From positions 1 through 64,000 of the IMG/VR virus record IMGVR_UViG_3300044631_002422: a DNA stretch of 64,000 nucleotides; one strand, 5' to 3'. This document shows, piece by piece, positions 6,817 to 43,770 of this stretch. The position numbers and the translations under genes are program-made. The notes beneath the pieces were generated by a model that was not told the DNA's origin, made no database searches, and was given only the letters and a program-made list of their open reading frames with translations. The stretch comes from a virus. The stretch's first letter is position 1; every line of letters starts with the position of its first letter.

Positions 6817-6826
6817 ATTTTACCTC

Positions 6827-25144: not shown

Positions 25145-25690
25145 TTATGTCAACTCGTCAAGTTCGCCATTGATAATCTGCTCGATAATATTTATAATAT
25201 TGGCCTTGCGGCCTTTGGGCAGAGGAGAGTTTGACTGTAATCTTAAATAATCACGACGCAAATGTGTGGGGAGTTTACGATCAATAAGTTCGAGTATTTC
25301 CTTTACATAAGCATCGTTGTTTACGTCGGGCGCGGTGTGCATTGTATAAACATTGTCGATACTAACAGGTTCGAGCAAGTCGCGCTTTTGGTGTTGTATT
25401 TTTTCGGCCTCGGTTCCGTAGTCCATGCGGTAGTAATTATCGCGTTTAAATGTTTTCAAACGATTGTTTATATGCGTGTACATAAAGTTTTCCAGTGGGC
25501 GAGTAGGGTCATAACTTTTTAGCCCAGCAAATCCAATGAGAAAAGCTTCTTGTTCGATATCTTCGACTTCATACCCAGCAAAAACATATTTTGGGGCTAA
25601 TCTTTTGGCAATTTTTTGAATAGTGGCAATAACTTCCTGTTCGTTTAATCCATCAGGTATTTTCATTAAGCTCCTCGTCAATTTCATCAA
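25145..25690 (-). CDS. Phage RNA polymerase sigma factor, sigma70 region 2 (start probably 25666)
   Basis: EDIEQEAFL...YDPTRP.ENFMYTHINNRL matches region 2. Confidence 0.75.
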   Translation of the reverse strand: MMKLTRSLMKIPDGLNEQEVIATIQKIAKRLAPKYVFAGYEVEDIEQEAFLIGFAGLKSYDPTRPLENFMYTHINNRLKTFKRDNYYRMDYGTEAEKIQHQKRDLLEPVSIDNVYTMHTAPDVNNDAYVKEILELIDRKLPTHLRRDYLRLQSNSPLPKGRKANIINIIEQIINGELDELT

Positions 25691-27905: not shown

Positions 27906-28155
27906 GGGCTTGACCCACAAGCCTCGCCCAAGTCGCGAGCATAGTTCGCCTCTCTATTCCAAAAGAGGCTTTTTATACACTAGTGTACAAGCGTACACCT
28001 GCCGGGCCGACCCAAATCGCCGTAAGTCCTAGAGCGCCAAGGGTTTACGTCAATTCAAAAAATTCCTAGAAAAATTTCTTTTTTTCTGCTCAAGTCTATT
28101 GACATTTCTAGCCGATACTGTATAATAGAAGCATAACACAACAAGGAAAATAAAA

Positions 28156-28332
28156 ATGACTATCTCAATTATCCCCCACGAAGCAACTAGCGGCTACGGC
28201 TTTCATTACACTGTAGAAATCGCCGGTTCGGTTGTTGCAATCTGCGGAACTCTGCATCATGCTCGCAAAGTTGCTGACGAAAAAAGAAAAGAATATCTCA
28301 AAAATTTGATTGATGGTATTGACAGTTTGTAA
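28156..28332 (+). CDS. Small early protein, family A-like (58 aa, absent from ORF track)
   Basis: Promoter 28099, AAGGAAA RBS, YTVEIAG..VAICGTLHHA. Confidence 0.75.
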   Translation: MTISIIPHEATSGYGFHYTVEIAGSVVAICGTLHHARKVADEKRKEYLKNLIDGIDSL

Positions 28333-28371
28333 CCGATAAGTATAATAAGAACACACACAAAGGAAAAAAAC

Positions 28372-28572
28372 ATGAAAACAGAACTACTCAAAAAAGCCGC
28401 TATTGCTCACCTTCCGCACGTTACTGATTACAAGTTGATTAACGAATTGCAACAACGAATTGTGGCTGATATTGTAGGTCATGAAAATGGTCGCGGTTGT
28501 TTGAGCAGTGAATACATTTCCAAACTGAACGCATTAAATGATGCAATCAACGCGGTTAAGGTTCACTGGTAA
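28372..28572 (+). CDS. Hypothetical early protein
   Basis: Promoter 28319 and RBS. Confidence 0.7.
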   Translation: MKTELLKKAAIAHLPHVTDYKLINELQQRIVADIVGHENGRGCLSSEYISKLNALNDAINAVKVHW

Positions 28573-28774
28573 TAATTTTACAATAATTATAAATACAACA
28601 CACACACACACACAAGGAAACGAAAAATGAAAATTTACATTGCAATCGAAGCGGATAAGGGTCTTGGGCAAACCATGATTCGAGCTTTTTATAACAAAGA
28701 AGAAGCTGAAAAATTCGCAAAAGAAAATCGTTATTGGATTGAAGAAGTTGAATTGTCGTAACGAAAGGAAAATT

Positions 28775-28954
28775 ATGTTCGACCGTTTTGCCGTTGCCGT
28801 TTTTTTAATGGATTATCATAGTGGCCAGTGGAGCCGAGGCTATCGCATTCTATCCAAAATGCGGCCCGAAAATTTCTCCTCTGATTTCTGTGAAGAAATG
28901 CGGAACACCGAATATTACGCTCACCTAGTTGCAAATTATGAAAACGAAGTATAA
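28775..28954 (+). CDS. Hypothetical early protein (DYHSGQWSRGY motif)
   Basis: AAGGAAA RBS before MFDRF. Confidence 0.65.
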   Translation: MFDRFAVAVFLMDYHSGQWSRGYRILSKMRPENFSSDFCEEMRNTEYYAHLVANYENEV

Positions 28955-28966
28955 GGAAAAATTATA

Positions 28967-29293
28967 ATGTTTACACGCGCCCAATATCTTGCCGGTGAAT
29001 GTTCGCACCAAGAATATTACGGTCAATTTGTTAATCAGTGGATTCTTACTTGCGTAAAGGGAAAATATGGAGTTAATCGATTAATTGAAGCTGAAAAGCT
29101 TGATATTAATTTTAACACTATCCCATTGTATTCATGGGACCAACTGAATATAATGTCGGCAGTTGACCAAGAACTTTGGGCTGCTGCTAATGGTTCACGA
29201 TATTACAGCCTATCTGATAATCTTTGCATCCAAAAACAAGCTGCTCGAATGATTGTAGAAAAATATCATAGTGAACAAAACGCCACTGTCTGA
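28967..29293 (+). CDS. Hypothetical early protein
   Basis: 108 aa with RBS. Confidence 0.75.
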   Translation: MFTRAQYLAGECSHQEYYGQFVNQWILTCVKGKYGVNRLIEAEKLDINFNTIPLYSWDQLNIMSAVDQELWAAANGSRYYSLSDNLCIQKQAARMIVEKYHSEQNATV

Positions 29294-29733
29294 CCCTATG
29301 TAAACAGACTGCGCAAAACAACCGCCCTAAGTGCTAGAGCCACAAGGACTTAGGTCAACGCGGGCCGCCGCCGTAAGTCGCAAGTCCTAGAGCCGCAAGG
29401 GTTTACGTCAATTCTCTAGAGCAATCGTCATGCCAATCGGCAAGTGAACAAAGATTGTACATGCCAATGAGCAGAATCTATGCAGCCAATGAGCAGTTTC
29501 TGTACACCCAGCAACGCTGCTTAAATTTTAGGCACGAAAACCGCGTGTTTTGAGCAGGAAAAAAATTCTGTGCTTAATTTTTGACTTGGCACGGGATTCG
29601 CTCTATATAGTGGTATGGAAAGTAAAAATCAAAAACAGAAACTTGCTGGGGAAAGAAAAGTTTCTGCTAAAGATTTAGCTTGACAATGACGATAAATATG
29701 GTATAATAGAGTAATAAGAATTAAGGAAAAAAA

Positions 29734-29934
29734 ATGAAAATTCTAAAAAGTAAAATCACAAAATTTGGTGCAAAAGTTAACCTAGTCGATGGTGGCGAAG
29801 GTACAAAACAATTCTTTGCACTGTCAAAACGTTATTGGATTTCTTATGGTGAATCTGCAAGTCCTCAAAATAATTGCAGAAATCGCTCAGATAATCTGAA
29901 ATATATCGAAAAAAAGTTTCAAGAAATTATCTAA
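29734..29934 (+). CDS. Hypothetical early protein
   Basis: Promoter 29680 and RBS. Confidence 0.65.
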   Translation: MKILKSKITKFGAKVNLVDGGEGTKQFFALSKRYWISYGESASPQNNCRNRSDNLKYIEKKFQEII

Positions 29935-29996
29935 AGCTCTTGACAACATCTTGTCGATACTGTATAATAGAATCACACAACACAAAGGAAACGAAA

Positions 29997-30134
29997 ATGA
30001 TTATCAACGGTTTTAAATTTTATGTTCGTCAACACGATACCGCCGACAAGTATTATGTCGCGATGAAGGGCGATGTGGTTCTCACTTCAAAAAGTTTGGA
30101 TTATCTTGTGAAAAAAGTCAAGAAACACGCTTGA
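29997..30134 (+). CDS. Small early protein
   Basis: Promoter 29940 and RBS; stop codon lies in the next -35 box. Confidence 0.65.
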   Translation: MIINGFKFYVRQHDTADKYYVAMKGDVVLTSKSLDYLVKKVKKHA

Positions 30135-30188
30135 CAACGCCGATAATTACTGTATAATAACAACACACAACACAACAAAGGAAAAAAT

Positions 30189-30395
30189 ATGATTGAAAAA
30201 TTTGATTACAATAGTTATGAAATCGCGACGTTTGTATATGACGGCGACCGCGAACGTTTGAAGGAATTGTGGATTGATGTCAACGGCGAATTTATTGGGG
30301 CGATTCGATTTCGCTCGATGAAACCATCGCAAGAACAAATCGAACAATACGTTGACGAATATCTTTCAGAAATGGCATTGGGATACGAAATATGA
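30189..30395 (+). CDS. Small early protein, family B
   Basis: Promoter 30131 and RBS; similar to 27119-27307. Confidence 0.75.
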   Translation: MIEKFDYNSYEIATFVYDGDRERLKELWIDVNGEFIGAIRFRSMKPSQEQIEQYVDEYLSEMALGYEI

Positions 30396-30685
30396 AAAAC
30401 GAAATTGAAAGCCTGGAAAGTATGTCGTATGATGAACTACTTCAGGCGGCTATTGCTCTGCTTGAAAATGCGGTCGAATTACGGGCCGAATTGGATAAAA
30501 TCAGGGGCATCATCAGATGAACAACTAGTGTACAAGTGTACAGTGGCCGGGCGGGCCGCAATCGACGTAAGTCCTAGAGCCACAAGGGTTTACGTCAACA
30601 AAAAAATTTTCCAGAAAATTTCCAGAATTGGGCTCAAGACTCTTGACAAATCCAGCCGATAGTGTATAATAGAGGCATAAGGAAA

Positions 30686-30856
30686 ATGAAAATGAAAAAC
30701 GAAATGACAATCACCGAAACCAAAACCAACAAGTCCCTAACCGGTTCTTTTTTCAAAGTTTACATTAACGGCCAACTGGTGGCAACTCGCACAACCCGCG
30801 AAGCCGCTGAAGAAGCTGGAAAAAAAATTCTGGAAAAAAAGGTCTACCGCTCTTGA
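30686..30856 (+). CDS. Small early protein, family A
   Basis: Paralog of 26892-27056; start 30686 or 30692. Confidence 0.75.
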   Translation: MKMKNEMTITETKTNKSLTGSFFKVYINGQLVATRTTREAAEEAGKKILEKKVYRS

Positions 30857-30923
30857 CAATGGCTGTCGGTTTGGTATAATCAGAGCATAAGTTAATCACA
30901 CAAACACAAAAGGAAAAAACACA

Positions 30924-31274
30924 ATGAACACTCAACAAGCTATCCGCGAATTTCAAGCCGCTATCGAATCCGTTATCGAAATCCCAAACAGTTGGTTGCC
31001 AACTGAATTGCATGATGACGTTCGTGGTGGTCGCACAATCGAACGTCTCAACGAACTACTCGACGAACGCGATGGTATCACCGAACATCGCAAGCTCAAA
31101 GCTCTCAAAGCTCGCAACATCGAAAAGTATGCCGCTACAGTTGCAGCCGGTCAAGAAATTGATTACAATATTGGCGAACGCGACGAATTGCAACTCTATC
31201 GTAATGAATGTGCAATGATTGAAGGAATGATTCACGCTGGTCATATCGACCGCGACGATTTGGAAGTAGAATAA
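30924..31274 (+). CDS. Hypothetical early protein
   Basis: 116 aa with promoter 30853 and RBS. Confidence 0.8.
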   Translation: MNTQQAIREFQAAIESVIEIPNSWLPTELHDDVRGGRTIERLNELLDERDGITEHRKLKALKARNIEKYAATVAAGQEIDYNIGERDELQLYRNECAMIEGMIHAGHIDRDDLEVE

Positions 31275-31471
31275 TGAACAGTAAAAAAATTGCAAAACGG
31301 CTTGAAGCAATGGGCTATAAGTTAACCCGCCGATTGAATTATTGGATTGTAAGTTGTGAGGAATTACCTTGGGATTGGGTATTTACTAACTTAAAAGAAG
31401 TTGAGCGTTGGACTCATATCGAAGAAACTGTTGGCGATAGATTTTGCTATCCCGAACCAGACGAGTGCTAA
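31274..31471 (+). CDS. Hypothetical protein
   Basis: TAATG coupling to the upstream gene. Confidence 0.65.
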   Translation: MNSKKIAKRLEAMGYKLTRRLNYWIVSCEELPWDWVFTNLKEVERWTHIEETVGDRFCYPEPDEC

Positions 31472-31783
31472 TGAAATTTTTTAAATCGTTTTTTATAATA
31501 TTGTGGATGGTTGGGTTTTTGTATTGTAGTATAATGGCTGTTACTTTTCTAATTCTGGATTTTATAAAATGGTTTTGAACACGCTATAGTGTACAACTGT
31601 ACAGGTCGGCGGGCGGCCCGGCGAGCCGTAAGTCCTAGAGCCTCAAGGGTTTACGTCTGTCAAGTAGGCAAAACCCATGCCACACAAAAAAGATTTTTTT
31701 TCTTATTTTTCTCTCAAGTATCTTGACAACTAGTGCCGATACTGTATAATGAGGAAGTCAATCACACACACAAGGAAAAAGTC

Positions 31784-32548
31784 ATGCTGAAATTCTCACC
31801 TGCTAACGTCAAGATTAAAGCCCTTAAACTCGTCGCCGCACTTGCCAAGTATTTGCCACGCGGTCGCCGTGTTTATAGTTTCGACTTGCTATCCGGTCAT
31901 ACTTGCCCATTCGCGAAATTATGCCGCAGTAAAGTAAAAATAATCGACGGCAAGCGTAAAATCTTTGATGGTCCGCATACTCAATTCCGCTGCTTTTCGG
32001 CAAGTCAAGAAGCGACATATACAAACGTTTATGAGCTACGCAAACACAATACGGAAATTCTGACCGCGATGAAAGACAACCAAGAAATTTTTGATATGTT
32101 AAATTCTTCTCTGCCCAAAAATGCTGGAGTTGTTCGCATTCACGTTGCGGGAGACTTTTTCAATCAAGATTATTTCGACGCTTGGGTGATGGTTGCGATG
32201 AACAATCCGAACGTTCTATTTTACGCTTATACAAAAAGCCTGCGTTATTGGGTCAGCCGCATTGCAGTTATTCCCGCGAATATGATTCTGACCGCAAGCG
32301 AAGGCGGAAGCGAAGATAATTTAATTCAAGAATATAATTTGCGGAAAGCTGTCGTTGTTTACAACGAACAATCAGCCGCTGAACTCGGATTGGAAATTGA
32401 CCACACCGACGAACATGCCGCCAACCCAGAAACGGCAAACCACGATTTTGCTCTTCTCATTCACGGTATTCAGCCAGCAGGCAGCGAAGCAGCCGCAGCG
32501 ATTCGCGAATTGAAAAGGAACGGAGTTGAATTTGCTTATTCACGATAA
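31784..32548 (+). CDS. Gene product 88 (GP88)-family protein
   Basis: FDLLSGHTCPFA..C, CFSA, VRIHVAGDFF, FYAYTKS. Confidence 0.8.
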   Translation: MLKFSPANVKIKALKLVAALAKYLPRGRRVYSFDLLSGHTCPFAKLCRSKVKIIDGKRKIFDGPHTQFRCFSASQEATYTNVYELRKHNTEILTAMKDNQEIFDMLNSSLPKNAGVVRIHVAGDFFNQDYFDAWVMVAMNNPNVLFYAYTKSLRYWVSRIAVIPANMILTASEGGSEDNLIQEYNLRKAVVVYNEQSAAELGLEIDHTDEHAANPETANHDFALLIHGIQPAGSEAAAAIRELKRNGVEFAYSR

Positions 32549-32611
32549 GGGGTAAAACGTGATTTATATTTTGATTGTAGTTATATCGACAATTTTATTT
32601 TTAGCACTATC

Positions 32612-32899
32612 ATGGAAAAATTCAGAATGAAAAGTTTGGTTATATTTTCTTACAAGCAGCCAGTGGATGGTTCGGTTATTCGTTGGGGAATTTTAGAACG
32701 CGAACGCGATACTAAAAAAGAACCTTTATCAATCAATTCTTTATGCGGACCTTATAGAAAACGCGATGCTAACTTTGAAAGGTCGCAACATCTTGACACT
32801 ATAAAAACTCGCAACGGAATAAAAACATTTTATCGCGAGCGACAAAATTGGAAAATCAAAATTCCATTTGTTGGAAGTATAGTATCGCGATTCGTATAG
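32612..32899 (+). CDS. Hypothetical protein
   Basis: 95-aa ORF. Confidence 0.55.
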   Translation: MEKFRMKSLVIFSYKQPVDGSVIRWGILERERDTKKEPLSINSLCGPYRKRDANFERSQHLDTIKTRNGIKTFYRERQNWKIKIPFVGSIVSRFV

Positions 32900-33100
32900 T
32901 GTACACGCGTACAGGGCGCGGGCCGTCCCGCCGCGTCGTAAGTCCTAGAGCCACAAGCACTTACGTCAGTCAAGTAGGCAAAGCGTGTGCCAGTGAAAAA
33001 AAATAAATTTCAAGAATCTTTTTTTATTTTGCTTCAGACTCTTGACAAACCTAGCCGATATTGTATAATAAGGAAGTCAATCACACAAGCGAGAAAAAAA

Positions 33101-33343
33101 ATGTACAAAGTAGAAATTGCCACTGTTTACGGCCCCTTTTGTGGTCAAGGCGGTTATGGTACTGAAACCTGCATCGGTTTCGACCGTAGCGTTAAGCGGG
33201 CTTTTGCCAAGGCTCGCGGCCAAGGCAGTCACCGCTACGACCGTAGCCAGATTGTAACCGGCTCGCGTGGTGGCGGCGTTCCCGTTCTGGGTATGGTTCG
33301 GATTTCTCACAACGGAAAAATTATTTCCGAAATTTGGGATTGA
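33101..33343 (+). CDS. Hypothetical Gly/Arg-rich early protein
   Basis: Start placed downstream of promoter 33042. Confidence 0.65.
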   Translation: MYKVEIATVYGPFCGQGGYGTETCIGFDRSVKRAFAKARGQGSHRYDRSQIVTGSRGGGVPVLGMVRISHNGKIISEIWD

Positions 33344-33409
33344 CCCCTTGACAGTTGTTTTTTCTTTGGTATAATCAGCGTATCAGTCACACACTTTGGA
33401 GAATTGAAA

Positions 33410-33601
33410 ATGGACAGCTTCAGCACCAACCAACATTCCGACGAATTGGACTATCAACCCACCGCTGCCGATTGGAACGAATACCAAGAGTGGTATGACG
33501 GCCAAGAGGCTTGCTACCCAGAGGGTGATGACCTCCTCGACAGCGACCCCATCGACCTTTACGGTGGCGATGACTCGCACTACTGGCAATACGACGAATA
33601 G
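33410..33601 (+). CDS. Small acidic early protein, family C
   Basis: GGAG RBS; paralog of 27741-27905; very D/E-rich. Confidence 0.75.
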   Translation: MDSFSTNQHSDELDYQPTAADWNEYQEWYDGQEACYPEGDDLLDSDPIDLYGGDDSHYWQYDE

Positions 33602-34051
33602 GGCTTGACCCGCAAATCCCGCCCAAGTCGCGGGTATGGTATGGGGTCCATTCAAAAACCCCCTATATTCGGGAAAAGAGGTAGGCGAATTAACGTCAAG
33701 GATTTGAGAAGCCTTAGCGGTTCTGTCTTCAGCGGAAAACGGCCTCGAAGTACCATATTTCATTTTGACAGGTGAACACCTGTACACATAGTGTCTATGC
33801 TAAACAAAACCGATTTACTTTTTTTTCTTTGGCCGAAATTTAAGGTAGTCTTACTCAAACTAATCTGAATTGCCCCAGCATTTGGGCCAAAGTTTGCCCG
33901 GCCCGCGCCGCCCTAAGTCCTAGAGCCCCAAGGAGTTACAACGATTGAAAAAAAACTTTTTTTCTGCTAAAGTTCCTTGACATTGTGTGCCGATATAGTA
34001 TAATAGAGAAAGTGTGCCGATATAGTATAATAGAGAAAAAAGAGAAACGAA

Positions 34052-34339
34052 ATGAAAGTTGAAGTAACGCCCGCAAAGCCTGATTTCCAGCCCGTCACCC
34101 TGAGTATCACCATTGAGTCGTTTGCCGAACTCGCTGTGCTTTTTGCTCGATTCAATTGCCCAGTTGCGATTATTAAACAACATGGCTTTGGTGATGGCCC
34201 AATGAACACCAGACTCGCAAGAGCAGCAGATTTTAGCATCGAAGATATCGATGAAGGCGGCAGAATTTTCGACCATATTTCAGACATAGCTAGAGGTTAT
34301 TATTACGCGATGTATAATGTGGGAAAAGGAGAACGATAA
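34052..34339 (+). CDS. Hypothetical early protein
   Basis: Follows promoter 33977. Confidence 0.7.
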   Translation: MKVEVTPAKPDFQPVTLSITIESFAELAVLFARFNCPVAIIKQHGFGDGPMNTRLARAADFSIEDIDEGGRIFDHISDIARGYYYAMYNVGKGER

Positions 34340-34545
34340 TGCTACAAATGACTAAGAATGAAATTATTTGCGAAATTTTGGAACAAACAACGCCCGATGA
34401 GCTAATGTTCGACCTTGAAAATACCGATATTGAATGGTATACTGACTTGGTGTGCGATGTTGTGTTTATGCGTACTGTAAGATATCAAGATGTTTGCGAC
34501 GCTTTAGTGTGGTTTGCTTCACAAGAATTGGAGGCTTTAAATTAG
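34339..34545 (+). CDS. Hypothetical acidic protein
   Basis: TAATG coupling and RBS. Confidence 0.65.
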   Translation: MLQMTKNEIICEILEQTTPDELMFDLENTDIEWYTDLVCDVVFMRTVRYQDVCDALVWFASQELEALN

Positions 34546-34727
34546 ACAAAGACTTTTATTTTGGGCAGGAACAATTACTGTTTGGTGTTGTTTTATTTTA
34601 CTCATGAGCTTAATTTTAGTGGGGATATACAACGGCTAAAAAATTTCTTAAGTTTTGACTTGACATAGACGATAAGTATGTTAGAATGATATTGTAAATG
34701 ATGTTTCACTTTTTTGGAGAATGTGCT

Positions 34728-34931
34728 ATGATGGTTGATTTGTACGGCAAGCGTAACGAGCGTAAGGTTTCTTTCCTGTATCCTGTTGGTGGCAAGAAGA
34801 ATGTTCTTCGGGCCGTAAATGGTGTAAAGGTTCGCAGTTATACTGGACCGAATGGGCGTGGTATTACCGTCCGCGAAGACAGCGGAATCATGAAGTCCTT
34901 TTCGGTCAGCAAGTGCGTAGCTGGTCTTTAA
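34728..34931 (+). CDS. Small basic beta-barrel-like protein
   Basis: GGAG RBS upstream of MMVDLYG. Confidence 0.6.
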   Translation: MMVDLYGKRNERKVSFLYPVGGKKNVLRAVNGVKVRSYTGPNGRGITVREDSGIMKSFSVSKCVAGL

Positions 34932-34944
34932 TTGCTACGCTTGC

Positions 34945-35187
34945 AACGGCGACGGTCAGCAGACAATCGCTAAGGTGCGGAACAAACCAACAAAATCCGC
35001 ACGACTCGATTGGGCGAGTATAAATAGGATGATAGGCCCAATGCGGCGGCATTTGCCGCGAATCGGCATTAAAGTTTAGCCCTCCTGTCGTCAGACGGCA
35101 GCAAACTAAACGAGCTAGCGTGTCGCCCCAACAGTTCTTCGCCGTTCTGCTGCTGGTGGATAAAACGAACGGCGAGCTTTTTCTTTT
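34945..35187 (+). ncRNA. Candidate structured non-coding RNA
   Basis: Intergenic and GC-rich; closing helix GGCGAC/GTCGCC, several internal hairpins, possible pseudoknot, terminator-like 3' hairpin. Confidence 0.5.
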
Positions 35188-35199
35188 AGGAAATGAAAC

Positions 35200-35382
35200 G
35201 TGAAACTGATTGTATTGGATTTTCTCATCGGCATATGTCATATCTTTACCGTAACTAAGGAGTTATGCGAAAGCGAAGATAATATCGTTGATTTCCTAAT
35301 GGAAAAAGATTTTAATCTTGACAACATTCAGTATATGTATGGCGACATACCGATAATAGGCGACATGAAAGTTGTGTTGTAA
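35200..35382 (+). CDS. Hypothetical protein
   Basis: AGGA RBS, GTG start. Confidence 0.5.
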   Translation: MKLIVLDFLIGICHIFTVTKELCESEDNIVDFLMEKDFNLDNIQYMYGDIPIIGDMKVVL

Positions 35383-35569
35383 TGCAACTACTTGACAAAC
35401 TCTTGCGATATGCTAAAATGATTCGTGAAGACCGTGCCACTGTTTGTTTGTGGTGCGGTAGACATTTAGTACTGCTTTGGGACGTACTTTTTTGGAGTAG
35501 CATTGCGGCTGGCGGTTGGCTGTTTGGTTACTTGATTTGTATTACGTTTAACATTGGGAGTTTTGCGCA

Positions 35570-35815
35570 GTGAAAACTTTTCTTGAATTTAGCGGATGGA
35601 TAGAGCTTGACGAAAAAACACAAATGTGTTATTATGGAAACGGCGACCCAAAAAGAATAACGCTAAAGGAATGGCAACAGCTTCCTAGGCAAGAGCAAAG
35701 TAATTATTGGATAGAACAAGAAGATTTTGACGTACTGTACCGCTATGGCGTAGATAGTGATTTTTTTGATTGGCGTTTAGTTTTGGGAGAAAAATATGAC
35801 GAAGAAGCTGTTTAG
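35570..35815 (+). CDS. Hypothetical protein
   Basis: GGAG RBS, GTG start. Confidence 0.6.
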   Translation: MKTFLEFSGWIELDEKTQMCYYGNGDPKRITLKEWQQLPRQEQSNYWIEQEDFDVLYRYGVDSDFFDWRLVLGEKYDEEAV

Positions 35816-35986
35816 TTTGGGGCAAACTTTTGTTGTGAATGGTGTCGAATGGACTGGCCGCGAGTATCGACTTGATGCCGCGTTTGAAGGATGGACGATT
35901 GTTGCCGTAAACGGCAGTAATCAAGTGGCACAATTTAGTCTTGCAGACGTTGAAAAAGCACTGGGGGTATGATATACTAGCGGTAT

Positions 35987-36055
35987 GGGCCAGCCGCTGG
36001 TTGCGGACTTGACTCTTATAAGGTCGATGATGGGATTCGATTTCCTGCTGGCCTA
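35987..36055 (+). tRNA. tRNA-Ile(UAU)-like, atypical
   Basis: Acceptor GGGCCAG/CTGGCCT, anticodon loop CT-TAT-AA, TTCGATT loop; weak D arm. Confidence 0.55.
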
Positions 36056-36105
36056 TTTGACTTTAGCAAAATGCATGGTAGAATGATTGAAAAGGAGAAC
36101 GTAAC

Positions 36106-36375
36106 GTGGCTAAACGCAAAAAGAAACTTCCGGTTGCGAGTGGTGAAATGTTGGATTTTGTGGTGACTTTAGAGCGTCCCGAAACTGGTACAATTGTGCG
36201 GTATATCGAGCAGTTCAGCCCGTTTAATCCCGCGACTGGACAGCTATATACTCATCGAGAGTTTAGCGAACAACTTTTGCCATACGTCCGAGAAGTTGGC
36301 AAGAGTTTTGAAAATTGGAATATGTTTGTTGTTCTTGCCACAAACGAAGAAATCGAAGAACTAAAGAGTATATAA
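36106..36375 (+). CDS. Hypothetical protein
   Basis: AAGGAG RBS. Confidence 0.7.
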   Translation: MAKRKKKLPVASGEMLDFVVTLERPETGTIVRYIEQFSPFNPATGQLYTHREFSEQLLPYVREVGKSFENWNMFVVLATNEEIEELKSI

Positions 36376-36584
36376 TGGGCATACTTATTGGGCTAGTTCT
36401 TGCATTTATTTTTGTGCAGAAAATATACCATCTCAACGGAAACCGCTAGGTCGGCGGGCCGACCCGCCGCGTCGTAAGTCCTTGTGGCCCTAGCACTTAC
36501 GTCAACAAAAAAATTTCTTAATTTTTTCTCAAGTCGGTTGACATTCTGTGTCGATAATGTATAATAGGAAGCAAGGAGAACGCA

Positions 36585-36830
36585 ATGTATAAAAATTTTA
36601 CGATTGAAATTAACTGCTGGCGATGCCACGAACCATACCGCGTCAAGCCTAACTGTGAAGGTTTTCTTCAGTGGATTAGGGGAGAAGCTTTGATTCAGGA
36701 CGCAATGCCAGAACTTACTGCTGACCAACGCGAACTGATTATGAGTGGAACTTGCGACCGCTGTTGGAACGCTATGTTTCCATACAACGAAATTCTCTCG
36801 GCTGAAGTTCTTGACAAGGACGGTCGATAA
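36585..36830 (+). CDS. Zinc-finger (CxxC...CxxC) early protein
   Basis: CWRC and CDRC; LIQDAMPELTADQRELIMSG; own promoter. Confidence 0.75.
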   Translation: MYKNFTIEINCWRCHEPYRVKPNCEGFLQWIRGEALIQDAMPELTADQRELIMSGTCDRCWNAMFPYNEILSAEVLDKDGR

Positions 36831-36878
36831 TGTATACTAAGGAAGTAAGTTAAAGTCACACATTTTGGAGATTGAATT

Positions 36879-37277
36879 ATGGGTTTGGACCAGTATGCTT
36901 TCGCACGTAAGGGTGAACCTGAAAAGTATATCGATAAAAATTGGCTTGGCAAGGACCAAGAATTTATTCGCTATCCAGAAAAAAACGAAATCGCCTATTG
37001 GCGAAAGCACCCCAATTTGCAAGGTTGGATGGAAAATCTATACCGCGAAAAGGGTGGTGACGCTGAATCTTTCAACTGCGTTGATGTTGAATTGACGCTC
37101 GAAGATTTGAACCGTTTAGAGCGTGATATTAATAAAGGTGCTTTACCAAGCACGACCGGCTTTTTCTTTGGTTCAGATTCCGACGAATACTACAAAGAAC
37201 AAGACGAGAAATTTATCGACGCGGCTCGCGATTCAATTATTAACGGTTACACTGTTGTTTATAATTCGTGGTGGTAA
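36879..37277 (+). CDS. Conserved phage hypothetical protein (MGLDQY...YWRKH...GFFFG family)
   Basis: Motif set recognisable from many phage genomes. Confidence 0.8.
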   Translation: MGLDQYAFARKGEPEKYIDKNWLGKDQEFIRYPEKNEIAYWRKHPNLQGWMENLYREKGGDAESFNCVDVELTLEDLNRLERDINKGALPSTTGFFFGSDSDEYYKEQDEKFIDAARDSIINGYTVVYNSWW

Positions 37278-37308
37278 CTAACGTTAAAGAAATAACAAGG
37301 AGAAAGTT

Positions 37309-37617
37309 ATGAGCAAATACTTTACAGCAGCAGAAGCAAAGAAATTGGCCGGAAAATCAGTTGAAGAAAAAGTTGAGCTTTTGTGTGAATCAATCAAGAA
37401 AAACGCCAGCGAACGTAAACGTTCATTAATAACTGGTTGGGAGCACAAAGAAGACCGAGATTTGTGGATTGATGGTGGATACAGCCGAACAGAAGATTGG
37501 GAAAAAGCAAAAAAGATTCTTGAGGCACTTGGTTATAAAGTTACATTTTATTGTCAAGAGCCCCCATCCGTGTGGGCAATCCCAATCGTTGCTATGTATA
37601 CCATAATTGAGTGGTAA
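37309..37617 (+). CDS. Hypothetical protein
   Basis: AAGGAG RBS. Confidence 0.7.
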   Translation: MSKYFTAAEAKKLAGKSVEEKVELLCESIKKNASERKRSLITGWEHKEDRDLWIDGGYSRTEDWEKAKKILEALGYKVTFYCQEPPSVWAIPIVAMYTIIEW

Positions 37618-37645
37618 CTGACAAACTGCTTCAAAGGAACGTAAC

Positions 37646-37834
37646 GTGAAAATTTGGTGTGTAGCGTGTTTTTACGAAGTCCAGCGTGATGCCCATTGGC
37701 GTTTGGAACTCAGCAATATTTATTTGTTTAGTTCTGCTCAACTGGCAAATAAGTTTGTTAGGAGTAATTATTACCAAAAAATGAACTACGACGCATTTGA
37801 AACTTATGAATCAGAGGTTGACAATGCGGTTTAG
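37646..37834 (+). CDS. Hypothetical protein
   Basis: AAGGA RBS, GTG start. Confidence 0.55.
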   Translation: MKIWCVACFYEVQRDAHWRLELSNIYLFSSAQLANKFVRSNYYQKMNYDAFETYESEVDNAV

Positions 37835-37979
37835 TGTGGTATACTTGCGTTATGAAGATTAAAATCAACAAAGTGGCAACGGGTCACAATCCGCCAGTAT
37901 TTCGCTGCGGCAAGTGGCAGGATAAGCGTAAACGGCGTGAGCGTACTCGCGCAGCACAAAGATTAAAGTGGAGTCGGGA

Positions 37980-38240
37980 ATGAGCGTAAAGACTCTTGTT
38001 CGTTGTCGCGGATTTACTGAAATTTTTAGCGATAACAAATACACATATATTTATCACAATGGTAATATGGGTGACACAGAAAGTCATATTCGCAAAAATT
38101 TTGATAGTATGTATTTTGATGGAGCGTACAACAGGCTTGAAAGGCAAGCAAATGTTATTAAAGATGGCTCGCCTGATTACAGTTTTGTTTTACGTGTTCC
38201 TACAAATGTATTTAACGCTTTGATAAAGGAGAACGAATGA
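37980..38240 (+). CDS. Hypothetical protein
   Basis: GGAG RBS; ATGA overlap with the next gene. Confidence 0.6.
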   Translation: MSVKTLVRCRGFTEIFSDNKYTYIYHNGNMGDTESHIRKNFDSMYFDGAYNRLERQANVIKDGSPDYSFVLRVPTNVFNALIKENE

Positions 38241-38605
38241 TTAAGATTAAAGGTTTGCCGGAAGGCTATGACATTGTGAGGATTGGCAGGCCAGAGGCTT
38301 GCGAATTATTTATAGGTGGCACTGGGATGGTGGAAAGGTCAAGCGGTGATTTGATGGCCGCTTGCTACCTCATCGTCCGCAAAATCGAGCGGCCAAAGCA
38401 ATACAGGCCGTTTGCCAGTGCTGAGGAGTTTAAGCCGCATCGGGATAGGTGGACAAGGCGAATCGCATACGACCCACAAGGAAATGATATTTACCCGCCA
38501 ACACGATACAGCGATTTAGGTTATCACGGGTTCAAATGGCAATGGTGCTTTGAGAACTTTTCATTTGACGATGGTACCCCATTTGGCGTGGAGGTGAGTG
38601 AATGA
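38237..38605 (+). CDS. Hypothetical protein, family D
   Basis: G.P.GY..VRIGRP...RKIE.PK.YRPFA...G.PFGVE shared with 61583-61951. Confidence 0.8.
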   Translation: MIKIKGLPEGYDIVRIGRPEACELFIGGTGMVERSSGDLMAACYLIVRKIERPKQYRPFASAEEFKPHRDRWTRRIAYDPQGNDIYPPTRYSDLGYHGFKWQWCFENFSFDDGTPFGVEVSE

Positions 38606-38744
38606 AGGTCTTTGTTGTAATTTGTTTTAAGGTAATTGGCCGCGAACATATTTTTGTAAATGCCGCCGTTTTCAAAAACTCAAATGACGCATCTACGTTT
38701 GGTGCAAATTATGACGATTCAATAGTAATCGAAAGGACTGTATC

Positions 38745-39167
38745 TTGAACGCCAAAGTTTATATTTACTGGAATTTACATAAGCGTTGTTTCAGTGCAAA
38801 ACGAAACGGCAAAGTTTTCGCCCACTTCCGAAATGCCAGCATTTTGAATCCTGAGTTTCGAGTGAGTGCTGCTGGATGCCGCCGTGTTCGTCGCGATGGT
38901 CGCAAAAATGTTCATGCCAACATTGTATGCGAATTGGAGAATTTTACAATTCATTCAGACAGCAGAATCGCCCCTGTTAGTGACGCTACTGCTGAGTATG
39001 CTTACTATAATCCGTATCTTTACGAAACTTTTGTTGACAACGAAGGTGATGCATTGTATAATGCACAAAGTGCCGAGTTAACCACTTATGAGCATATGCT
39101 CAATTACTATAAAAATTTGAAAGAAAGACAACCCATTATTTACATTACGAAAGAAGCAAATGACTAA
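38745..39167 (+). CDS. Conserved phage hypothetical protein (YWNLHK...RKNVHA...YNPY)
   Basis: Widespread phage motif pattern. Confidence 0.75.
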   Translation: MNAKVYIYWNLHKRCFSAKRNGKVFAHFRNASILNPEFRVSAAGCRRVRRDGRKNVHANIVCELENFTIHSDSRIAPVSDATAEYAYYNPYLYETFVDNEGDALYNAQSAELTTYEHMLNYYKNLKERQPIIYITKEAND

Positions 39168-39354
39168 CGACATTGCAAAAAGATTAGAAAACGACATTGC
39201 AAAAAGATTAGAAAAACTCCAAGATGACTTGAACCATCTGGCCGAGAAACTCTCTGGAGAAGGTCCATCTAGCTATACCGAACGAAAAGAGCGAGCAAAA
39301 GAACGACAAGCTTTTGTTAGTGAAATAGAAAGAATGCAAAATGAAAGTGAATAA
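39160..39354 (+). CDS. Small coiled-coil protein
   Basis: Contains an in-frame 24-bp tandem duplication (NDIAKRLE x2). Confidence 0.6.
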   Translation: MTNDIAKRLENDIAKRLEKLQDDLNHLAEKLSGEGPSSYTERKERAKERQAFVSEIERMQNESE

Positions 39355-39550
39355 GCACAACCGCGACCTAATTATTGCCGAATATATCGACCGTACCATC
39401 GATGGAATGGATATTAAAGGACTTATTGAATATGTTCGTGGCGGAATAGAAGCCGACCTTAAACATTATTCCGATACAGAATTGGAATATGAAATTCTTG
39501 ACCAATACGATGATTTTCCTTGGTACGATTTTGATTATGCAGATGAATAA
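39341..39550 (+). CDS. Small acidic protein
   Basis: Overlaps the upstream stop. Confidence 0.6.
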   Translation: MKVNKHNRDLIIAEYIDRTIDGMDIKGLIEYVRGGIEADLKHYSDTELEYEILDQYDDFPWYDFDYADE

Positions 39551-39622
39551 AGTATAAGGTTTTGGCGGCCCTGTTGGTAGTTTTGTTATTGAATATAAGG
39601 AACCTTCATTAGAGAATAAATA

Positions 39623-39832
39623 ATGACCGAAAACCCACTACAACTAGCAACTAAAAATTGGATAGAAGCAGTCCAGAAGTATTATGAGAATACTCGTAGT
39701 AATGAATTGACCCAAATTCATATGAGGGGTTATTTCAGCGGTTGGAGCGAACGCGAGATTCTGGAATTTGCGAATAAATTGGCTAAAAATGAACAGGACT
39801 ATCCTTTGTATAGAGAGAACGAGAATAAATAG
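39623..39832 (+). CDS. Hypothetical protein
   Basis: 69-aa ORF. Confidence 0.6.
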   Translation: MTENPLQLATKNWIEAVQKYYENTRSNELTQIHMRGYFSGWSEREILEFANKLAKNEQDYPLYRENENK

Positions 39833-40056
39833 GCCCGCCCGCCGAGCCCTAAGTCCTTGTGCCGCTAGGACTTACGTCAATCAAGCAAAGCAACTTTTGT
39901 GCCATTCCCGCTCGGGAAAATTCTAGGCAAACCGCAAAAGTTATTCCCGCTCGGGACAGAAAACTTTTTTCTTTTTTTTCTCTCAAGCCACTTGACCTTC
40001 GCGGTCGATAAAGTATAATGAGAGAGTAAGTCACACACAATGTTTAGGAGTTAGTT

Positions 40057-40908
40057 ATGCCTCGCCGTGTTGTTAGTTGTCAGTTGCCGCCCGTCAAAAC
40101 GTGCAAGAATACCAATTGTGCTAGTGTTGCTATTAGCTACGATGGTTTCTGCAAGTCGCACGCTCCAAGTCGTCGCATTAAGAGCTATAATTCGCGTCCG
40201 CGATGTAGTTCACGATGGGCGAATCCTATCGGTATCGAACTCGAAATGATTCATCCAGAATCCGCAAGCCGTTTGGCACAAGTTGCCCGCTTTGCATGTA
40301 CCGATGCCAGTTTACCCTATGGTGGTGCGGAAATCAAGCTGGTGCAAGATGCCAGTAAGATTACCAATATCGCCGCCGATACTGCTCAACGTGCTGGCCT
40401 TGCTGGTGCAAAGGTTAATCGTAGCTGCGGTTTTCATGTTCATATGGGATTGCCCAATGGTGTCAGCGTTGGATTAGAGCGTCGAAGCGATGCGAACTGG
40501 TCAAGCTGTAACGCCCGTTATCGTTTGTGGGCATTGGCAACAAACTTTCAAGAATACTTTTTTGATATTGTTCCCAAAACTCGCCGCACGAACCACTATT
40601 GCTCGCCGTTGACAAGCGTAACCAATAGTTTACATTCTCACTATGCTTGGCTATCTGTTTCGCACCGTGTTCCTACGGTCGAACTACGGATTCATAGCGG
40701 AACGGTCAATCCGTGGAAAGTCAAAGGTTGGGTCGAAGTCGCTGTGCGTTTGCGTGAAATGGTAAACGCCGCGATTCTCGGAACCCAAGGTTGGGATAAT
40801 CTTCCTAGCAAGAAGTTTGTAGATTATATGGAACCGGGAACACTTGGTTCCAAGTATTTGCTCGCTCGCGAATGTGCTGGTGGCAAACTGGTAAATTTTG
40901 GATTCTAA
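40057..40908 (+). CDS. Putative amidoligase (COOH-NH2 ligase, Amidoligase_2)
   Basis: IGIELE, DASL, AEI, VNRSCGFHVH, TVELRIHSGT. Confidence 0.85.
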   Translation: MPRRVVSCQLPPVKTCKNTNCASVAISYDGFCKSHAPSRRIKSYNSRPRCSSRWANPIGIELEMIHPESASRLAQVARFACTDASLPYGGAEIKLVQDASKITNIAADTAQRAGLAGAKVNRSCGFHVHMGLPNGVSVGLERRSDANWSSCNARYRLWALATNFQEYFFDIVPKTRRTNHYCSPLTSVTNSLHSHYAWLSVSHRVPTVELRIHSGTVNPWKVKGWVEVAVRLREMVNAAILGTQGWDNLPSKKFVDYMEPGTLGSKYLLARECAGGKLVNFGF

Positions 40909-40959
40909 TTATCGTTCGATAGAACGTACACACACTCACTTTTTTTGGAGAATTTTATT

Positions 40960-41826
40960 ATGTGTCGATTGGCTTATATTCCGGGCAACTGCAAAGTAAA
41001 CCGTACTGATTTGGTGGACCTTTTGCATATGCTGCAAAAGTCGTTTGGTGGCGATGGTAACGGATTCGTTGCCGTTGGTCCCAATGGTGAGGAGTTTAGC
41101 GAGAAGGGTGTCAAGTTAGACAACGATGCTATCGTTATCAAAACTTGGAAACTTATCAAAAAGGGTTGGTCGGTTTACTATCATACTCGCAAGATTAGCG
41201 TAGGCTGGAGTAGCGACAAGCAATGCCATCCGCACCGTATCAACGGTGACAAGTTCAAGGGTTGGCTGTGCCACAATGGAACGTGGAATGATGGAGTACC
41301 GCTTGCCAATTATCTTAACTGTGGTAGCGATACCGCTGCTCTTGCTCGATGTATCGGCAAGTTTGGTATCGAGGGAGCAGAAAAACGCAATCTGTTTCCC
41401 AAGTCGGGCGTGTTTCTTATCTACGGTAGCGAGAATGGCGAATCGCCTATTCATCGCGTAGTCAAGAAATCGGGCGACTTGCAATACTGCCCCAAGACTG
41501 GTATTTGGGCCAGTGAGTTCGAAAAGGATTGGCCGTACTGGTCGCAGGTTTATACCGCAACTGTTGGCAAGCACTTGCTTTGCAAACCAGCCCCACAATA
41601 TATTTCGCCTGCTCGCGGTAATGGTGGCAAGTTTGTGAGTCGCAAGAATAGCCATCCTGATATTATTGATTCAGGAATTCCAGCACCGTGGGACGATGAT
41701 GACCGAACCGTTGTTGATTCGCGTCGCTCGTTGTCGCAACGATTGTGGCCGCAAGACCCTACTGAGTACGAACCAGAGCCAGATTGGGAATATCGTGGCG
41801 GATACCCACGACGCGATTTGAGTTAG
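40960..41826 (+). CDS. Class II (Ntn) glutamine amidotransferase
   Basis: Starts MCRL (Cys2 nucleophile); DGNG, HTR, CHPH, HNG and SDT motifs. Confidence 0.85.
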   Translation: MCRLAYIPGNCKVNRTDLVDLLHMLQKSFGGDGNGFVAVGPNGEEFSEKGVKLDNDAIVIKTWKLIKKGWSVYYHTRKISVGWSSDKQCHPHRINGDKFKGWLCHNGTWNDGVPLANYLNCGSDTAALARCIGKFGIEGAEKRNLFPKSGVFLIYGSENGESPIHRVVKKSGDLQYCPKTGIWASEFEKDWPYWSQVYTATVGKHLLCKPAPQYISPARGNGGKFVSRKNSHPDIIDSGIPAPWDDDDRTVVDSRRSLSQRLWPQDPTEYEPEPDWEYRGGYPRRDLS

Positions 41827-42189
41827 TGTGTGTGTGTGTTTGTAGGTGAGTTTTATCTTTTAACTTTAGGAGTATTTTATGAAGAAGTGTACTGGTTGTG
41901 GCCGTCCAATTGAAACTGTTGTTATTCGTCAATGTCCAAAATGCATCAACAATCGCGCTGGATTATAAGTGTGTGTGTGTGTGTGTGATGCCCAACAGCT
42001 TGGGGGACGCAAGTCCCCCGGCTGTACGGGTGTACACTACGCGGGCCGCCCCGCGACGCCCTAAGTCCTTGTGGCTCTAAGACTTACGTCAATCCGCTAG
42101 GCAAACCTCATGCCAAACAAAAACAAAAATCTTTTTTCTTTTTTCCTCAAGATACTTGACAAGCAATGCCGATATAGTATAATAAGGAA

Positions 42190-42316
42190 GTGAGCAGTGG
42201 CCTGACAAGCAGGTACGACTCTCGACAGTTAAGGACCGGGAAGCTCCGGGCTGAACCGTTTCGTAGCGGTTACTGTTGATTGCTGCTGTTGGCGGTGTTC
42301 GATTCCCGCCGCTCAC
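42190..42316 (+). ncRNA. tRNA-like small RNA with its own promoter
   Basis: Begins 6 nt after the TATAAT of promoter 42156; closing stem GTGAGC/GCTCAC; T-arm GGCGG..TTCGATT..CCGCC; T-run follows. Confidence 0.6.
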
Positions 42317-42406
42317 ATTTTTTAAAAATTCCGCTTGACATTCGTTGAGCGTAACGTATAATTCAAGAGTAACAAGTTCAGTTTTTTTTCACGAAGGGTT
42401 TTTACC

Positions 42407-43327
42407 ATGTCTACTGTTTCCCGTTCTAATGTTTCTGCCAACGAAATCTCGGCTCGCGTTGCCGCTGCTTTCAACTTCACTGTTGACAAGTTCCCGCTTG
42501 CTGGCCCAGATGGTCTTCGCACTCCGTGGTACGGTATGTTCCGCTCTGACAACAACGAAGTTGTTGGTAACGGTTCTGTAACCTCGCGGTACTGTCCACA
42601 CCAAACCGAAGACGTTCTCGCACTGGTGGATGCCGCCAGCGAAGCGTTTGAAGGTGTGGCGAGTGTTGACACCTACTTCCGCGATGGGCATTATGTCGCC
42701 ATCGAACCAACTCGCGAACAACGTTATGCGATTTTCGGCACTGCCGACAACATCTTTCCGCGTGTCGTGATTCGTGCGGGTTACGATGGCAAGGCGTTCA
42801 ACGCCGCGATGGGTTATTACCGCGATGCTTGCCGCAATCTGGCAATCATGCGACAAGTTAGCGGAACCACCGTTTCCATCCGCCACACTAGCGGACTGCG
42901 AAGCCGCATGGATTCGCTGATTCAAAGCTTTACGAGTCTTCGCGATTCGTGGCAAATGCTGGCCGCAACTGCGGTTCAGCTTGAATCAACTCGCGTGAAT
43001 CTTGCGGACTTCCTTCGCGAAGTTTACGGCGAACCCGAAACCGACAGCGGTCGTGCTGCGACTATCCATCGCAATCGTACCGAAACGATTTTCAATCGTG
43101 TGATGGATGAACGTAGCCGCACTGGTCGCGGTGCTATGCCAGCCGATTTCCGCGTCAGCGGTTGGGAAGCGTTCAACGCTGTGCAGGGATTCGTTCAGCA
43201 TGAATCAACTCGCAAGAGTTCGGCTCGCGGTGCTGCCGCAACCGGATTTGGTCGAATCATCGCCGCCGCTAACGATGCTGCGGTTCAACGTGCCGAACGT
43301 GCTGCGATGAATCTGCTCGCGGTTTAA
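42407..43327 (+). CDS. DUF932 domain protein
   Basis: R.D....G..V...Y.P.Q, YDG, YR.ACRN, IRHTS, WEAFNAVQ. Confidence 0.8.
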   Translation: MSTVSRSNVSANEISARVAAAFNFTVDKFPLAGPDGLRTPWYGMFRSDNNEVVGNGSVTSRYCPHQTEDVLALVDAASEAFEGVASVDTYFRDGHYVAIEPTREQRYAIFGTADNIFPRVVIRAGYDGKAFNAAMGYYRDACRNLAIMRQVSGTTVSIRHTSGLRSRMDSLIQSFTSLRDSWQMLAATAVQLESTRVNLADFLREVYGEPETDSGRAATIHRNRTETIFNRVMDERSRTGRGAMPADFRVSGWEAFNAVQGFVQHESTRKSSARGAAATGFGRIIAAANDAAVQRAERAAMNLLAV

Positions 43328-43353
43328 TCTTTCGTGTGTTTCCTTTCGTGTGA

Positions 43354-43388
43354 GCCAGTGGCGGCATTTTGCCGCCGCTGGTTTTTTT
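43354..43388 (+). terminator. Intrinsic terminator after DUF932 gene
   Basis: GCCAGTGGCGGC-ATTTT-GCCGCCGCTGGT followed by a T-run. Confidence 0.85.
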
Positions 43389-43770
43389 AGATAGGTGTAC
43401 AATGGTATACATACTAATCGTCATTGTGGCGTGTATTATATTTTTGATGCTGGAATTATAATTCCGGTTATACTCTGGCCGCCTAGCGCGGCCTTTTTTA
43501 TTATACTTTCGGTGAGTTGACGTAAGTCCTTGGGGCTCTAGGAGTTACGACGCGCGGGGCCGGGCGGCTTACTGTACATCTGTACACCTGTACGAATTTT
43601 CACTATTGACATTCTGTCTCTGCTAAACTATACTGATTTGCTGGGAACTCTTGGCCGAAATTTGTCTTATCCAAAGTATTAAGATTTGCCCACAACATTT
43701 GGTCTGAATTCATATTTTGCTAAAGTGTGGCTTGACATTAGTCGATATGTATTGTATGATGTTATTGTAT

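Follow-up and report, generated by a model that had tools for sequence, protein, structure and literature searches.

Sigma54 is the one bacterial sigma factor that is silent until an ATPase fires it, its holoenzyme occupying the promoter as a closed complex until an activator acts, which is an AAA+ enhancer-binding protein usually bound at upstream sites. Its promoters have a GG and a GC dinucleotide one turn of the helix apart, within TGGCAC-N5-TTGC, and the start lies about 12 nt downstream of the GC. Enhancer-dependent promoters of this class include glnAp2 and pspA. Back-to-back sigma54 promoters that flank spaced repeats are the classical geometry of divergent promoters sharing an enhancer, and in Qrr and GlmY/GlmZ a sigma54 promoter directly heads a short structured non-coding RNA. 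Among phages, the sigma54 sites of Pseudomonas phage YuA reportedly drive particle-formation and lysis genes in the sense direction, which a study of 2008 is said to have confirmed in an rpoN mutant, and to our knowledge YuA is the only phage shown to use sigma54. Here we describe sigma54 (RpoN)-type elements in the phage recorded as IMGVR_UViG_3300044631_002422 in IMG/VR, of which positions 1 to 64,000 (a stretch of 64,000 nucleotides, referred to as the window) were analyzed. Five such elements lie on the minus strand of the early region and point at palindromes at a nearly constant distance, back-to-back with promoters of the sigma70 type. We put it at about an even chance that these five motifs, together with a sixth, are RpoN-class promoters at which the closed complex would be held until a host activator fired it, giving leftward RNAs led by a hairpin.

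The sites resemble bacterial RpoN promoters in their equal boxes, spacing and flanking preferences, and the pair at 29420 and 29587, with repeats between its members, recalls the bacterial divergent sigma54 operons that share an enhancer. They differ from bacterial RpoN promoters in lying in a virus, in that five of the six sites face a palindrome and away from any gene, and in having neither an activator gene nor, at three sites, clear upstream activator sites. The difference from Qrr and GlmY/GlmZ is the lack of a terminator at three of the five sites, of covariation or strand bias in the hairpins, and of a match in Rfam. Phage YuA needs host sigma54 alongside sigma70 promoters, according to the account of Ceyssens et al. 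2008 given in PMC10914365; the present phage likewise has sigma54 sites beside sigma70 promoters, here predicted from sequence, but they lie in the early region, run antisense and are fused to a palindrome. YuA was the only published case of phage use of sigma54 found in the literature, and a full-text literature search returned no description of antisense, hairpin-coupled sigma54 sites. The remark in an earlier note on this DNA that repeated RpoN sites are unusual in phages can therefore be kept only with the qualification that YuA uses sigma54 promoters (PMC10914365).

Two further systems bear on the surroundings of the sites. In T4-type phages, the elements named PeSLs (promoter-early stem-loops) are small repeated cassettes in which a stem-loop is combined with an early promoter that is strong and sigma70-like; they lie on either side of small non-essential genes and serve as recombination points in modular shuffling, as set out by Arbiol et al. 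2010 (PMC2839356). The present phage also repeats a stem-loop and an early promoter between small genes (12 units, 18 perfect promoters) and shows cassette-level joints in strain contigs. On the other hand, its stem-loops are composites of three to four hairpins without U-tracts, and PeSLs as described in PMC2839356 carry no sigma54 box. Neither its terminase nor its portal had a T4-like match, and the phage is not T4-type; its boundary modules are therefore an analogue of PeSLs and not a member. In E. coli, RpoN ‘repressive promoters’ have been proposed for chromosomal nitrogen genes, RpoN holoenzyme that is bound in the absence of an enhancer being suggested to repress transcription by sigma70 (Shimada et al. 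2021, PMC8743547); here, in contrast, there is no overlap between the sigma54 site and the sigma70 promoter, and the distance between the two is variable.

Sigma54-type sites with identical boxes in the early region

The motif TGGCAY-N5-TTGCY occurred exactly five times in the window and had no further copy in the whole 148,313-bp genome; all five are minus-strand sites, located from 29.4 to 42.1 kb (Table 1), against a chance expectation of 0.13 on average and 1 at most (100 shuffles of the window). Both boxes were identical across the five sites, and the central five bases were different in each. From the C of TTGC to the first base of the ACGTAA palindrome arm, sites 2, 3 and 5 have a gap of 11 nt and sites 1 and 4 a gap of 12 nt. 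When the C of TTGC was counted as −12, each of the five predicted starts (Table 1) coincided with the beginning of the ACGTAA arm, falling on its first base or one base ahead. In a consensus-weighted scan of the genome, all five sites were among the eleven top matches, and shuffles gave 3.05 at that threshold. The earlier note had listed these five motifs with conserved boxes and variable centers, a palindrome 11–12 bp away and a start expected at the palindrome edge, and had proposed the scan against a shuffled background; each of these points agreed with the coordinates and scores obtained here.

The third-best match of the same scan was a sixth site on the plus strand, which lies back-to-back with site 1 as an inverted-repeat pair (149 nt between the arms). 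It is aimed at the sigma70 promoter 29680-29707 and a gene for 66 amino acids (29734-29934), ahead of which it stands in tandem with that promoter, and it carries a leader related to one in relatives. Between site 1 and the sixth site, two direct repeats of 12 nt (29463-29496) form a candidate enhancer or operator. Directly upstream of site 4, two copies of a near-palindrome (39905-39956) are candidate regulator sites; TTCC(C)GAG words resembling it were found upstream of sigma54-type sites in the relatives L020, L016 and L074.

Agreement with the RpoN consensus

The published RpoN consensus reads mrNrYTGGCACG-N4-TTGCWNNw (Barrios et al. 1999, in the form quoted in PMC2725144). We compared it with a pooled set comprising this phage and 51 loci of other IMG/VR contigs (546 kb in total), in which the spacing from TGGCAY to TTGC was exactly 5 nt in 55 distinct cases, against 0–4 cases for every other spacing from 0 to 12. 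The unselected flanks of these 55 sites followed the consensus too: T preceded TGGCA in 44 (a pyrimidine in 49), a purine followed TGGCAY in 52, T preceded TTGC in 44, and TTGC was followed by A or T in 48 and by C in 4. The match to RpoN asserted in the earlier note thus extends to positions that had not been used for finding the motifs. In addition, 134 palindrome arms from loci fetched without a sigma54 query were scored for the motif at the right distance, and the scores were bimodal, 8 exact and 5 near-miss sites standing against a bulk with 4–7 mismatches; the near-miss sites never lost GG or GC. Such a pattern of box, spacing and flank is as RpoN recognition predicts, and chance resemblance would not give it. 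The RpoN reading is, in our view, well supported by the sequence.

We also considered that some other phage or host DNA-binding protein reads the motif, which may form one composite operator with the palindrome. Such a protein would be in keeping with a host that may lack rpoN, with the small inverted repeat GGCA-N7-TGCC in three of the five sites, with arrays of TGGCA half-sites in relatives, and with the phage's own sigma70-family factor and its protein with a helix-turn-helix (HTH) and a coiled coil, both encoded beside the early region. However, the boxes, the 5-nt spacing and the four unselected flanking positions agree with the RpoN consensus, and the retention of GG and GC in the near-misses points the same way; sites 1 and 4 and nearly all relatives lack the inverted repeat (C after TTGC in 4 of 55), and a two-box motif of 15 bp is too short for the −35/−10 pair of the phage's sigma70-type factor. 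We therefore regard this alternative as unlikely, although the palindrome itself, considered below, lends it some weight.

Composite stem-loop units and cassette shuffling

The palindromes (ACGTAAG...CTTACGT) sit in 12 composite units between 27.3 and 43.6 kb, five of which contain the motif. The plus-strand order of a unit is a TGTACA hairpin (in unit 1, a second palindrome), a GC-only hairpin, the palindrome, an A/T-rich tract and a consensus sigma70 promoter, and the unit palindrome has arms of the TAAGTCC / GGACTTA type and ends in ACGTCAA. The sigma54-type element is placed between the palindrome and the A/T tract in five units; in the remaining seven it was wholly absent rather than decayed.

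In a comparison that covered contigs of four runs, contigs from other lake samples joined position 28755 to 29962, 28140 to 30129, and 39986 to 29727. The 28755-29962 joint, present in contigs of two runs, removes 1.2 kb holding site 1 and its plus-strand partner, and the 39986/29727 joint sets the 66-amino-acid gene behind the site-4 module. Whole cassettes have therefore been gained, lost or moved, with breakpoints in or beside the repeated promoters, and the sigma54 box travels with the shuffling cassettes. These two joints would also suit a hitch-hiking relic, in which the boxes spread within recombining boundary cassettes and have no role here, as would the occurrence of a site in five of 12 units and its lack of a link to orthologous genes. 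We consider a relic very improbable, since the five copies keep perfect boxes despite diverged spacers and linkers, a copy in this genome is either whole or absent and decayed intermediates do not occur, and the layout persists in about 100 diverged contigs.

Several features of the units were recorded besides. The units at 36475, 39850, 42062 and 43523 have the asymmetric palindrome core flipped relative to earlier units, and the last of these (43523) is inverted as a whole (window 36475-43547). The GC-only blocks (29360-29375, 31604-31628, 32917-32937, 39831-39849 and 42034-42058) lie in a region of 40% GC; they often have a short GC-only palindrome, GGGCC(C/G), at the center, and their stems show compensating changes between units. 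In relatives, 8-bp GC-only palindromes occupy the slot of the GC-only block. A CA dinucleotide repeat lies at 41960-41994, just upstream of unit 5.

Recurrence of the layout in other viruses

In IMG/VR, 101 stretches had the motif 9–16 nt before CGTAAGTC, against 17 in a control with a shifted gap (29–36 nt). The gap between box and palindrome peaked at 12–13 nt (56 of 119 distinct sites), and the linker sequences between them were only about 45–48% alike. A sigma70-type promoter diverging from the site was present within 220 nt upstream in 44 of 85 hairpin-coupled sites, and a co-directional one in 3; the adjacency to divergent sigma70 promoters pointed out in the earlier note was thus found both here and in these contigs. 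We take the spacing and orientation of box and palindrome to be a family rule in about a hundred other uncultured viral contigs.

Many of the pattern loci share with this phage the gene order beside the early region (terminase, ERCC4, GDP-mannose dehydratase, a 265-amino-acid protein with HTH and coiled coil, and a phage sigma factor), and among the loci with the hairpin or motif pattern about 50 hold the phage sigma factor and 22 the terminase. In five long relatives, the motif lay mostly within a few kilobases, a 223-kb genome having all seven of its sites in 6 kb. The relative L074 (a 122-kb contig) repeats a whole module of palindrome, GC block, palindrome, minus-strand sigma54 box, TTCCGAG word and sigma70-like promoter seven times in 6 kb (L074:1-6095), with all seven motifs against the likely gene direction. 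Copies in sense orientation also occur: in L016, L020 and L018 a small gene has the motif about 33–34 nt ahead of its start codon, together with a shared leader, and in L019 and L020 a gene for 234 amino acids has it 16 nt ahead of the −35 box of its promoter. Both placements appear to be those of working promoters.

Predicted action of the sites

In the mechanism that we propose, the sigma54 element would be an optional sub-module of the boundary cassettes that divide the early region. From left to right, a boundary would comprise a stem-loop block, a consensus sigma70 early promoter and the genes, with the sigma54 element in between at five of the 12 and aimed at the stem-loops. Host sigma54 RNA polymerase would sit there as a stable closed complex until an enhancer-binding ATPase fired it; this activator would be the host's, because the phage encodes no such ATPase. 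Transcription would then begin at the palindrome edge. From there, a leftward RNA with the hairpin first would cross the stem-loop block in antisense and continue in the direction of the 3' end of the cassette before it. A 5'-terminal stem-loop protects bacterial RNAs from decay. The leftward RNA could pair with the stem-loop ends that early messages share, interfere with early transcription by collision, or simply be a by-product that does no harm. We infer RpoN binding, the start site and the RNA from the arrangement; start-site logic in particular best accounts for the fixed distance and orientation of the palindrome, the loose distance of the sigma70 promoter, the occurrence of sense copies among relatives and, at site 1, the enhancer-like pair. 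Read-through from site 1 into the late operon or the phage sigma factor is unlikely, as the antisense transcript would have to extend over 3.7 kb and a sigma70-like promoter already stands at 26019-25991.

Several findings weigh against this mechanism. In this phage, neither a sigma54 activator domain (PF00158) nor an RpoN DNA-binding domain was found. Weak PF00158 matches were obtained in five of nine relatives and were rejected as activators, the four frames inspected (from four relatives) being RuvB-like or ClpB-like ATPases without the GAFTGA loop. An activator would thus have to be the host's or of a kind not yet known. The 265-amino-acid protein beside the sigma factor was dropped as an RpoN-like candidate, since it gave no more than a coiled coil and a weak signal for an HTH. 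Sites 2, 3 and 5 had no recognisable upstream activator sites and no canonical terminator for the predicted RNAs, a T-rich tail following the hairpin at sites 1 and 4 only, and the minus strand downstream of the five sites contained no open reading frame (ORF). In three of the five window sites TTGC is followed by C, although A or T is preferred in the consensus. The GP88-family gene and the DUF932 gene lie downstream of sites 2 and 5, and their relatives mostly had no box in the 330 nt upstream; a gene-specific promoter was rejected on this ground, and the site is therefore not tied to particular genes.

A further weak point is the rpoN gene that the host would need to have, as comparisons of the terminase, portal, dehydratase and protease led to no host. 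The terminase resembles those of Bacillus phages and of Microcystis phage MaeS at 26–28% identity, with the exact terminase present in metagenome records only, and the sole match of the portal is a Clostridium phage (23% identity). Genes from many phyla match the GDP-mannose dehydratase at about 50% identity, and the Clp protease clusters with viral proteins. WhiB is absent from the phage, and the early families of L5 type therefore give no host call. Strong Shine-Dalgarno sites and promoters with consensus −35 and −10 boxes argue weakly against Bacteroidota and cyanobacteria.

The hairpins, too, speak against the mechanism in part. The unit hairpins fold, a consensus scan calling no plus-strand terminator at any of them, and there was no bias of the stems toward pairing on the sigma54-transcribed strand: fold energies favored that strand in 9 cases and the opposite strand in 5, and the stem pairs comprised 23 G-U against 26 A-C. 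The idea that the hairpin evolved as a structure of the sigma54 transcript was dropped for this lack of strand bias, which also weakens a purely RNA-structural role. No Rfam family matched the hairpin block. The palindrome arms are conserved in sequence and not covarying, which makes the palindrome resemble a DNA site for a protein no less than an RNA structure. This conservation, together with G-G and C-C mismatches that recur at fixed stem positions and are typical of protein sites, and with an outer arm that extends to about −4 of the predicted start, favors recognition by a protein other than RpoN, i.e. the alternative judged unlikely above from the boxes and flanks.

The missing activator would also be explained if host sigma54 holoenzyme bound the sites and rarely or never fired, the closed complex itself being the function; it could serve as a cassette boundary or roadblock, tune the neighbouring early promoter, or act as a sink for host sigma54. 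No activator gene was found in the phage or in nine relatives, sites 2, 3 and 5 lack upstream activator sites, all five sites point away from genes, and accidental firing into the stem-loop block would be harmless. Some relatives have face-to-face pairs of sites 4 bp apart that cannot both fire, and the repression of sigma70 transcription proposed for enhancer-less RpoN holoenzyme in E. coli (PMC8743547) gives a precedent. However, the distance from the sigma54-type site to the −35 box of the sigma70 promoter ranges from 40 to 244 bp in this phage and from 21 to 158 nt in relatives, so that helical phasing was rejected and direct occlusion or contact is unlikely, whereas the tight palindrome spacing and the 44-to-3 orientation bias resemble start-site logic. 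The parking of sigma54 polymerase beside sigma70 promoters, which the earlier note had offered as an alternative, hence fits less well than implied there, as it is the palindrome distance that is fixed. As a roadblock, moreover, the complex would, by a geometric estimate, stall an incoming polymerase inside the palindrome, not where release is favored, and five sites per genome make a small sink, able to titrate only if multiplied by the phage copy number. On balance, we find a bound polymerase that rarely or never fires, though the foremost of the alternatives, doubtful as the function, and continue to prefer promoters fired by a host activator.

Genomic surroundings

The window makes up the first 64 kb of a virus record that is complete at 148,313 bp, with direct terminal repeats, and that was found again in 24 lake-water DNA runs from 2020 to 2025; all 24 runs containing the phage were lake-water DNA and none was RNA. 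Minus-strand structural and late genes occupy bases 1 to 25,690. From about 26 to 43.5 kb the direction is rightward throughout, with dozens of small ORFs and 18 perfect (12-of-12, TTGACA and TATAAT) sigma70 promoters between 27053 and 42362, on the plus strand only, of which 16 have a 16-nt spacer; several further promoters with one mismatch in this region are likewise on the plus strand. The clearest intrinsic terminators are at its far end (43352-43384 and 43477-43493). This is an early region driven by host sigma70. The GP88-family ORF, as listed, begins at a GTG inside its promoter, an ATG being present just downstream.

Table 1. Location of the sigma54-type sites and of neighbouring features in the window
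Feature	Positions	Strand	Remarks
Sigma54-type −24/−12 site 1	29420..29435	−	Exact match; top score in genome scan; predicted +1 29409; 12-nt gap
Sigma54-type site 2	31667..31682	−	Exact match; predicted +1 31656, first base of palindrome arm
Sigma54-type site 3	32977..32992	−	Exact match; predicted +1 32966
Sigma54-type site 4	39889..39904	−	Exact match; predicted +1 39878
Sigma54-type site 5	42100..42115	−	Exact match; predicted +1 42089
Sixth sigma54-type site	29587..29601	+	−12 box TCGC for TTGC, GG and GC kept
Two exact 12-nt direct repeats, 22 bp apart	29463..29496	.	Between site 1 and sixth site; no other exact copy in window
Two copies of a 13-nt near-palindrome, 39 bp apart	39905..39956	.	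Directly upstream of site 4
Stem-loop block, unit 1	29327..29408	.	Palindrome, GC-only block, palindrome
Stem-loop block, unit 2	31585..31656	.	TGTACA hairpin, GC hairpin, TAAGTCC-type palindrome
Stem-loop block, unit 3	32895..32966	.	
Stem-loop block, unit 4	39831..39878	.	GC hairpin and palindrome, core flipped relative to units 1-3
Stem-loop block, unit 5	42001..42089	.	G5/C5 hairpin, TGTACA hairpin, GC hairpin, flipped-core palindrome
Consensus sigma70 promoter	29680..29707	+	Downstream of plus-strand sigma54-type site; tandem promoters for 66-amino-acid gene
Consensus sigma70 early promoter (12/12)	31723..31750	+	Back-to-back with site 2, 40 bp off; heads GP88-family gene 31733-32548
Consensus sigma70 early promoter	33042..33069	+	Back-to-back with site 3, 49 bp off
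Sigma70 promoter (11/12)	39992..40019	+	Back-to-back with site 4, 87 bp off; heads amidoligase-like gene 40057-40908
Consensus sigma70 early promoter	42156..42183	+	Back-to-back with site 5, 40 bp off; upstream of DUF932 gene 42407-43327
Late block	1-25,690	−	Terminase, portal, Clp-type protease, weak major-head match, two giant ORFs, ERCC4 nuclease, GDP-mannose dehydratase
Phage sigma70-family factor	25145-25690	−	Sigma70_r2, 28.5 bits; first gene of leftward block

The phage sigma70-family factor is kept in about 50 related loci, adjoining the 265-amino-acid protein, in which the HTH is N-terminal. The two giant ORFs (2,022 and 2,461 amino acids, 748-14212, minus strand) gave almost no Pfam signal, the sole match being a short YscD-like Bon domain. 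A GCCGATA word or a near variant lies in the spacer of most of the unit promoters inspected and in several relatives, and could be a regulator site inside the promoters. The early region also contains a full-length match to the Pistol ribozyme at 35004-35065 on the plus strand (47.7 bits against a gathering score of 34.5, E = 4e-6), and the early proteins encoded at 31733-32548, 38745-39167 and 42407-43327 (plus strand) belong to families that were first named in mycobacteriophage L5 (GP88, gp82) and to DUF932.

Implications

With sigma54 wired into the early region, a phage would have a tight switch gated by a signal. Our proposal may be carried further to a widespread and so far undescribed phage device, in which a sigma54 promoter of the host is fused, at a set distance, to a sequence-conserved palindrome at cassette boundaries and a host stress or nutrient activator would trigger the hairpin-capped antisense RNAs, or free parked polymerase, and so reprogram the whole early region in one step; we offer this extension tentatively and think it rather less than probable, and if it were true, the shut-off of early genes would be tied to the physiological state of the host. 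Should the host have no rpoN, the motif would point to a new factor imitating the specificity of sigma54. The rule itself, i.e. a site back-to-back with an early promoter, aimed at a palindrome and with its start at the palindrome edge, defines a module with predicted start sites. If it is functional, it would provide a portable promoter-plus-hairpin part for synthetic use, and it would point to a way, so far unstudied, in which phages sense the physiology of the host or deal with its polymerase.

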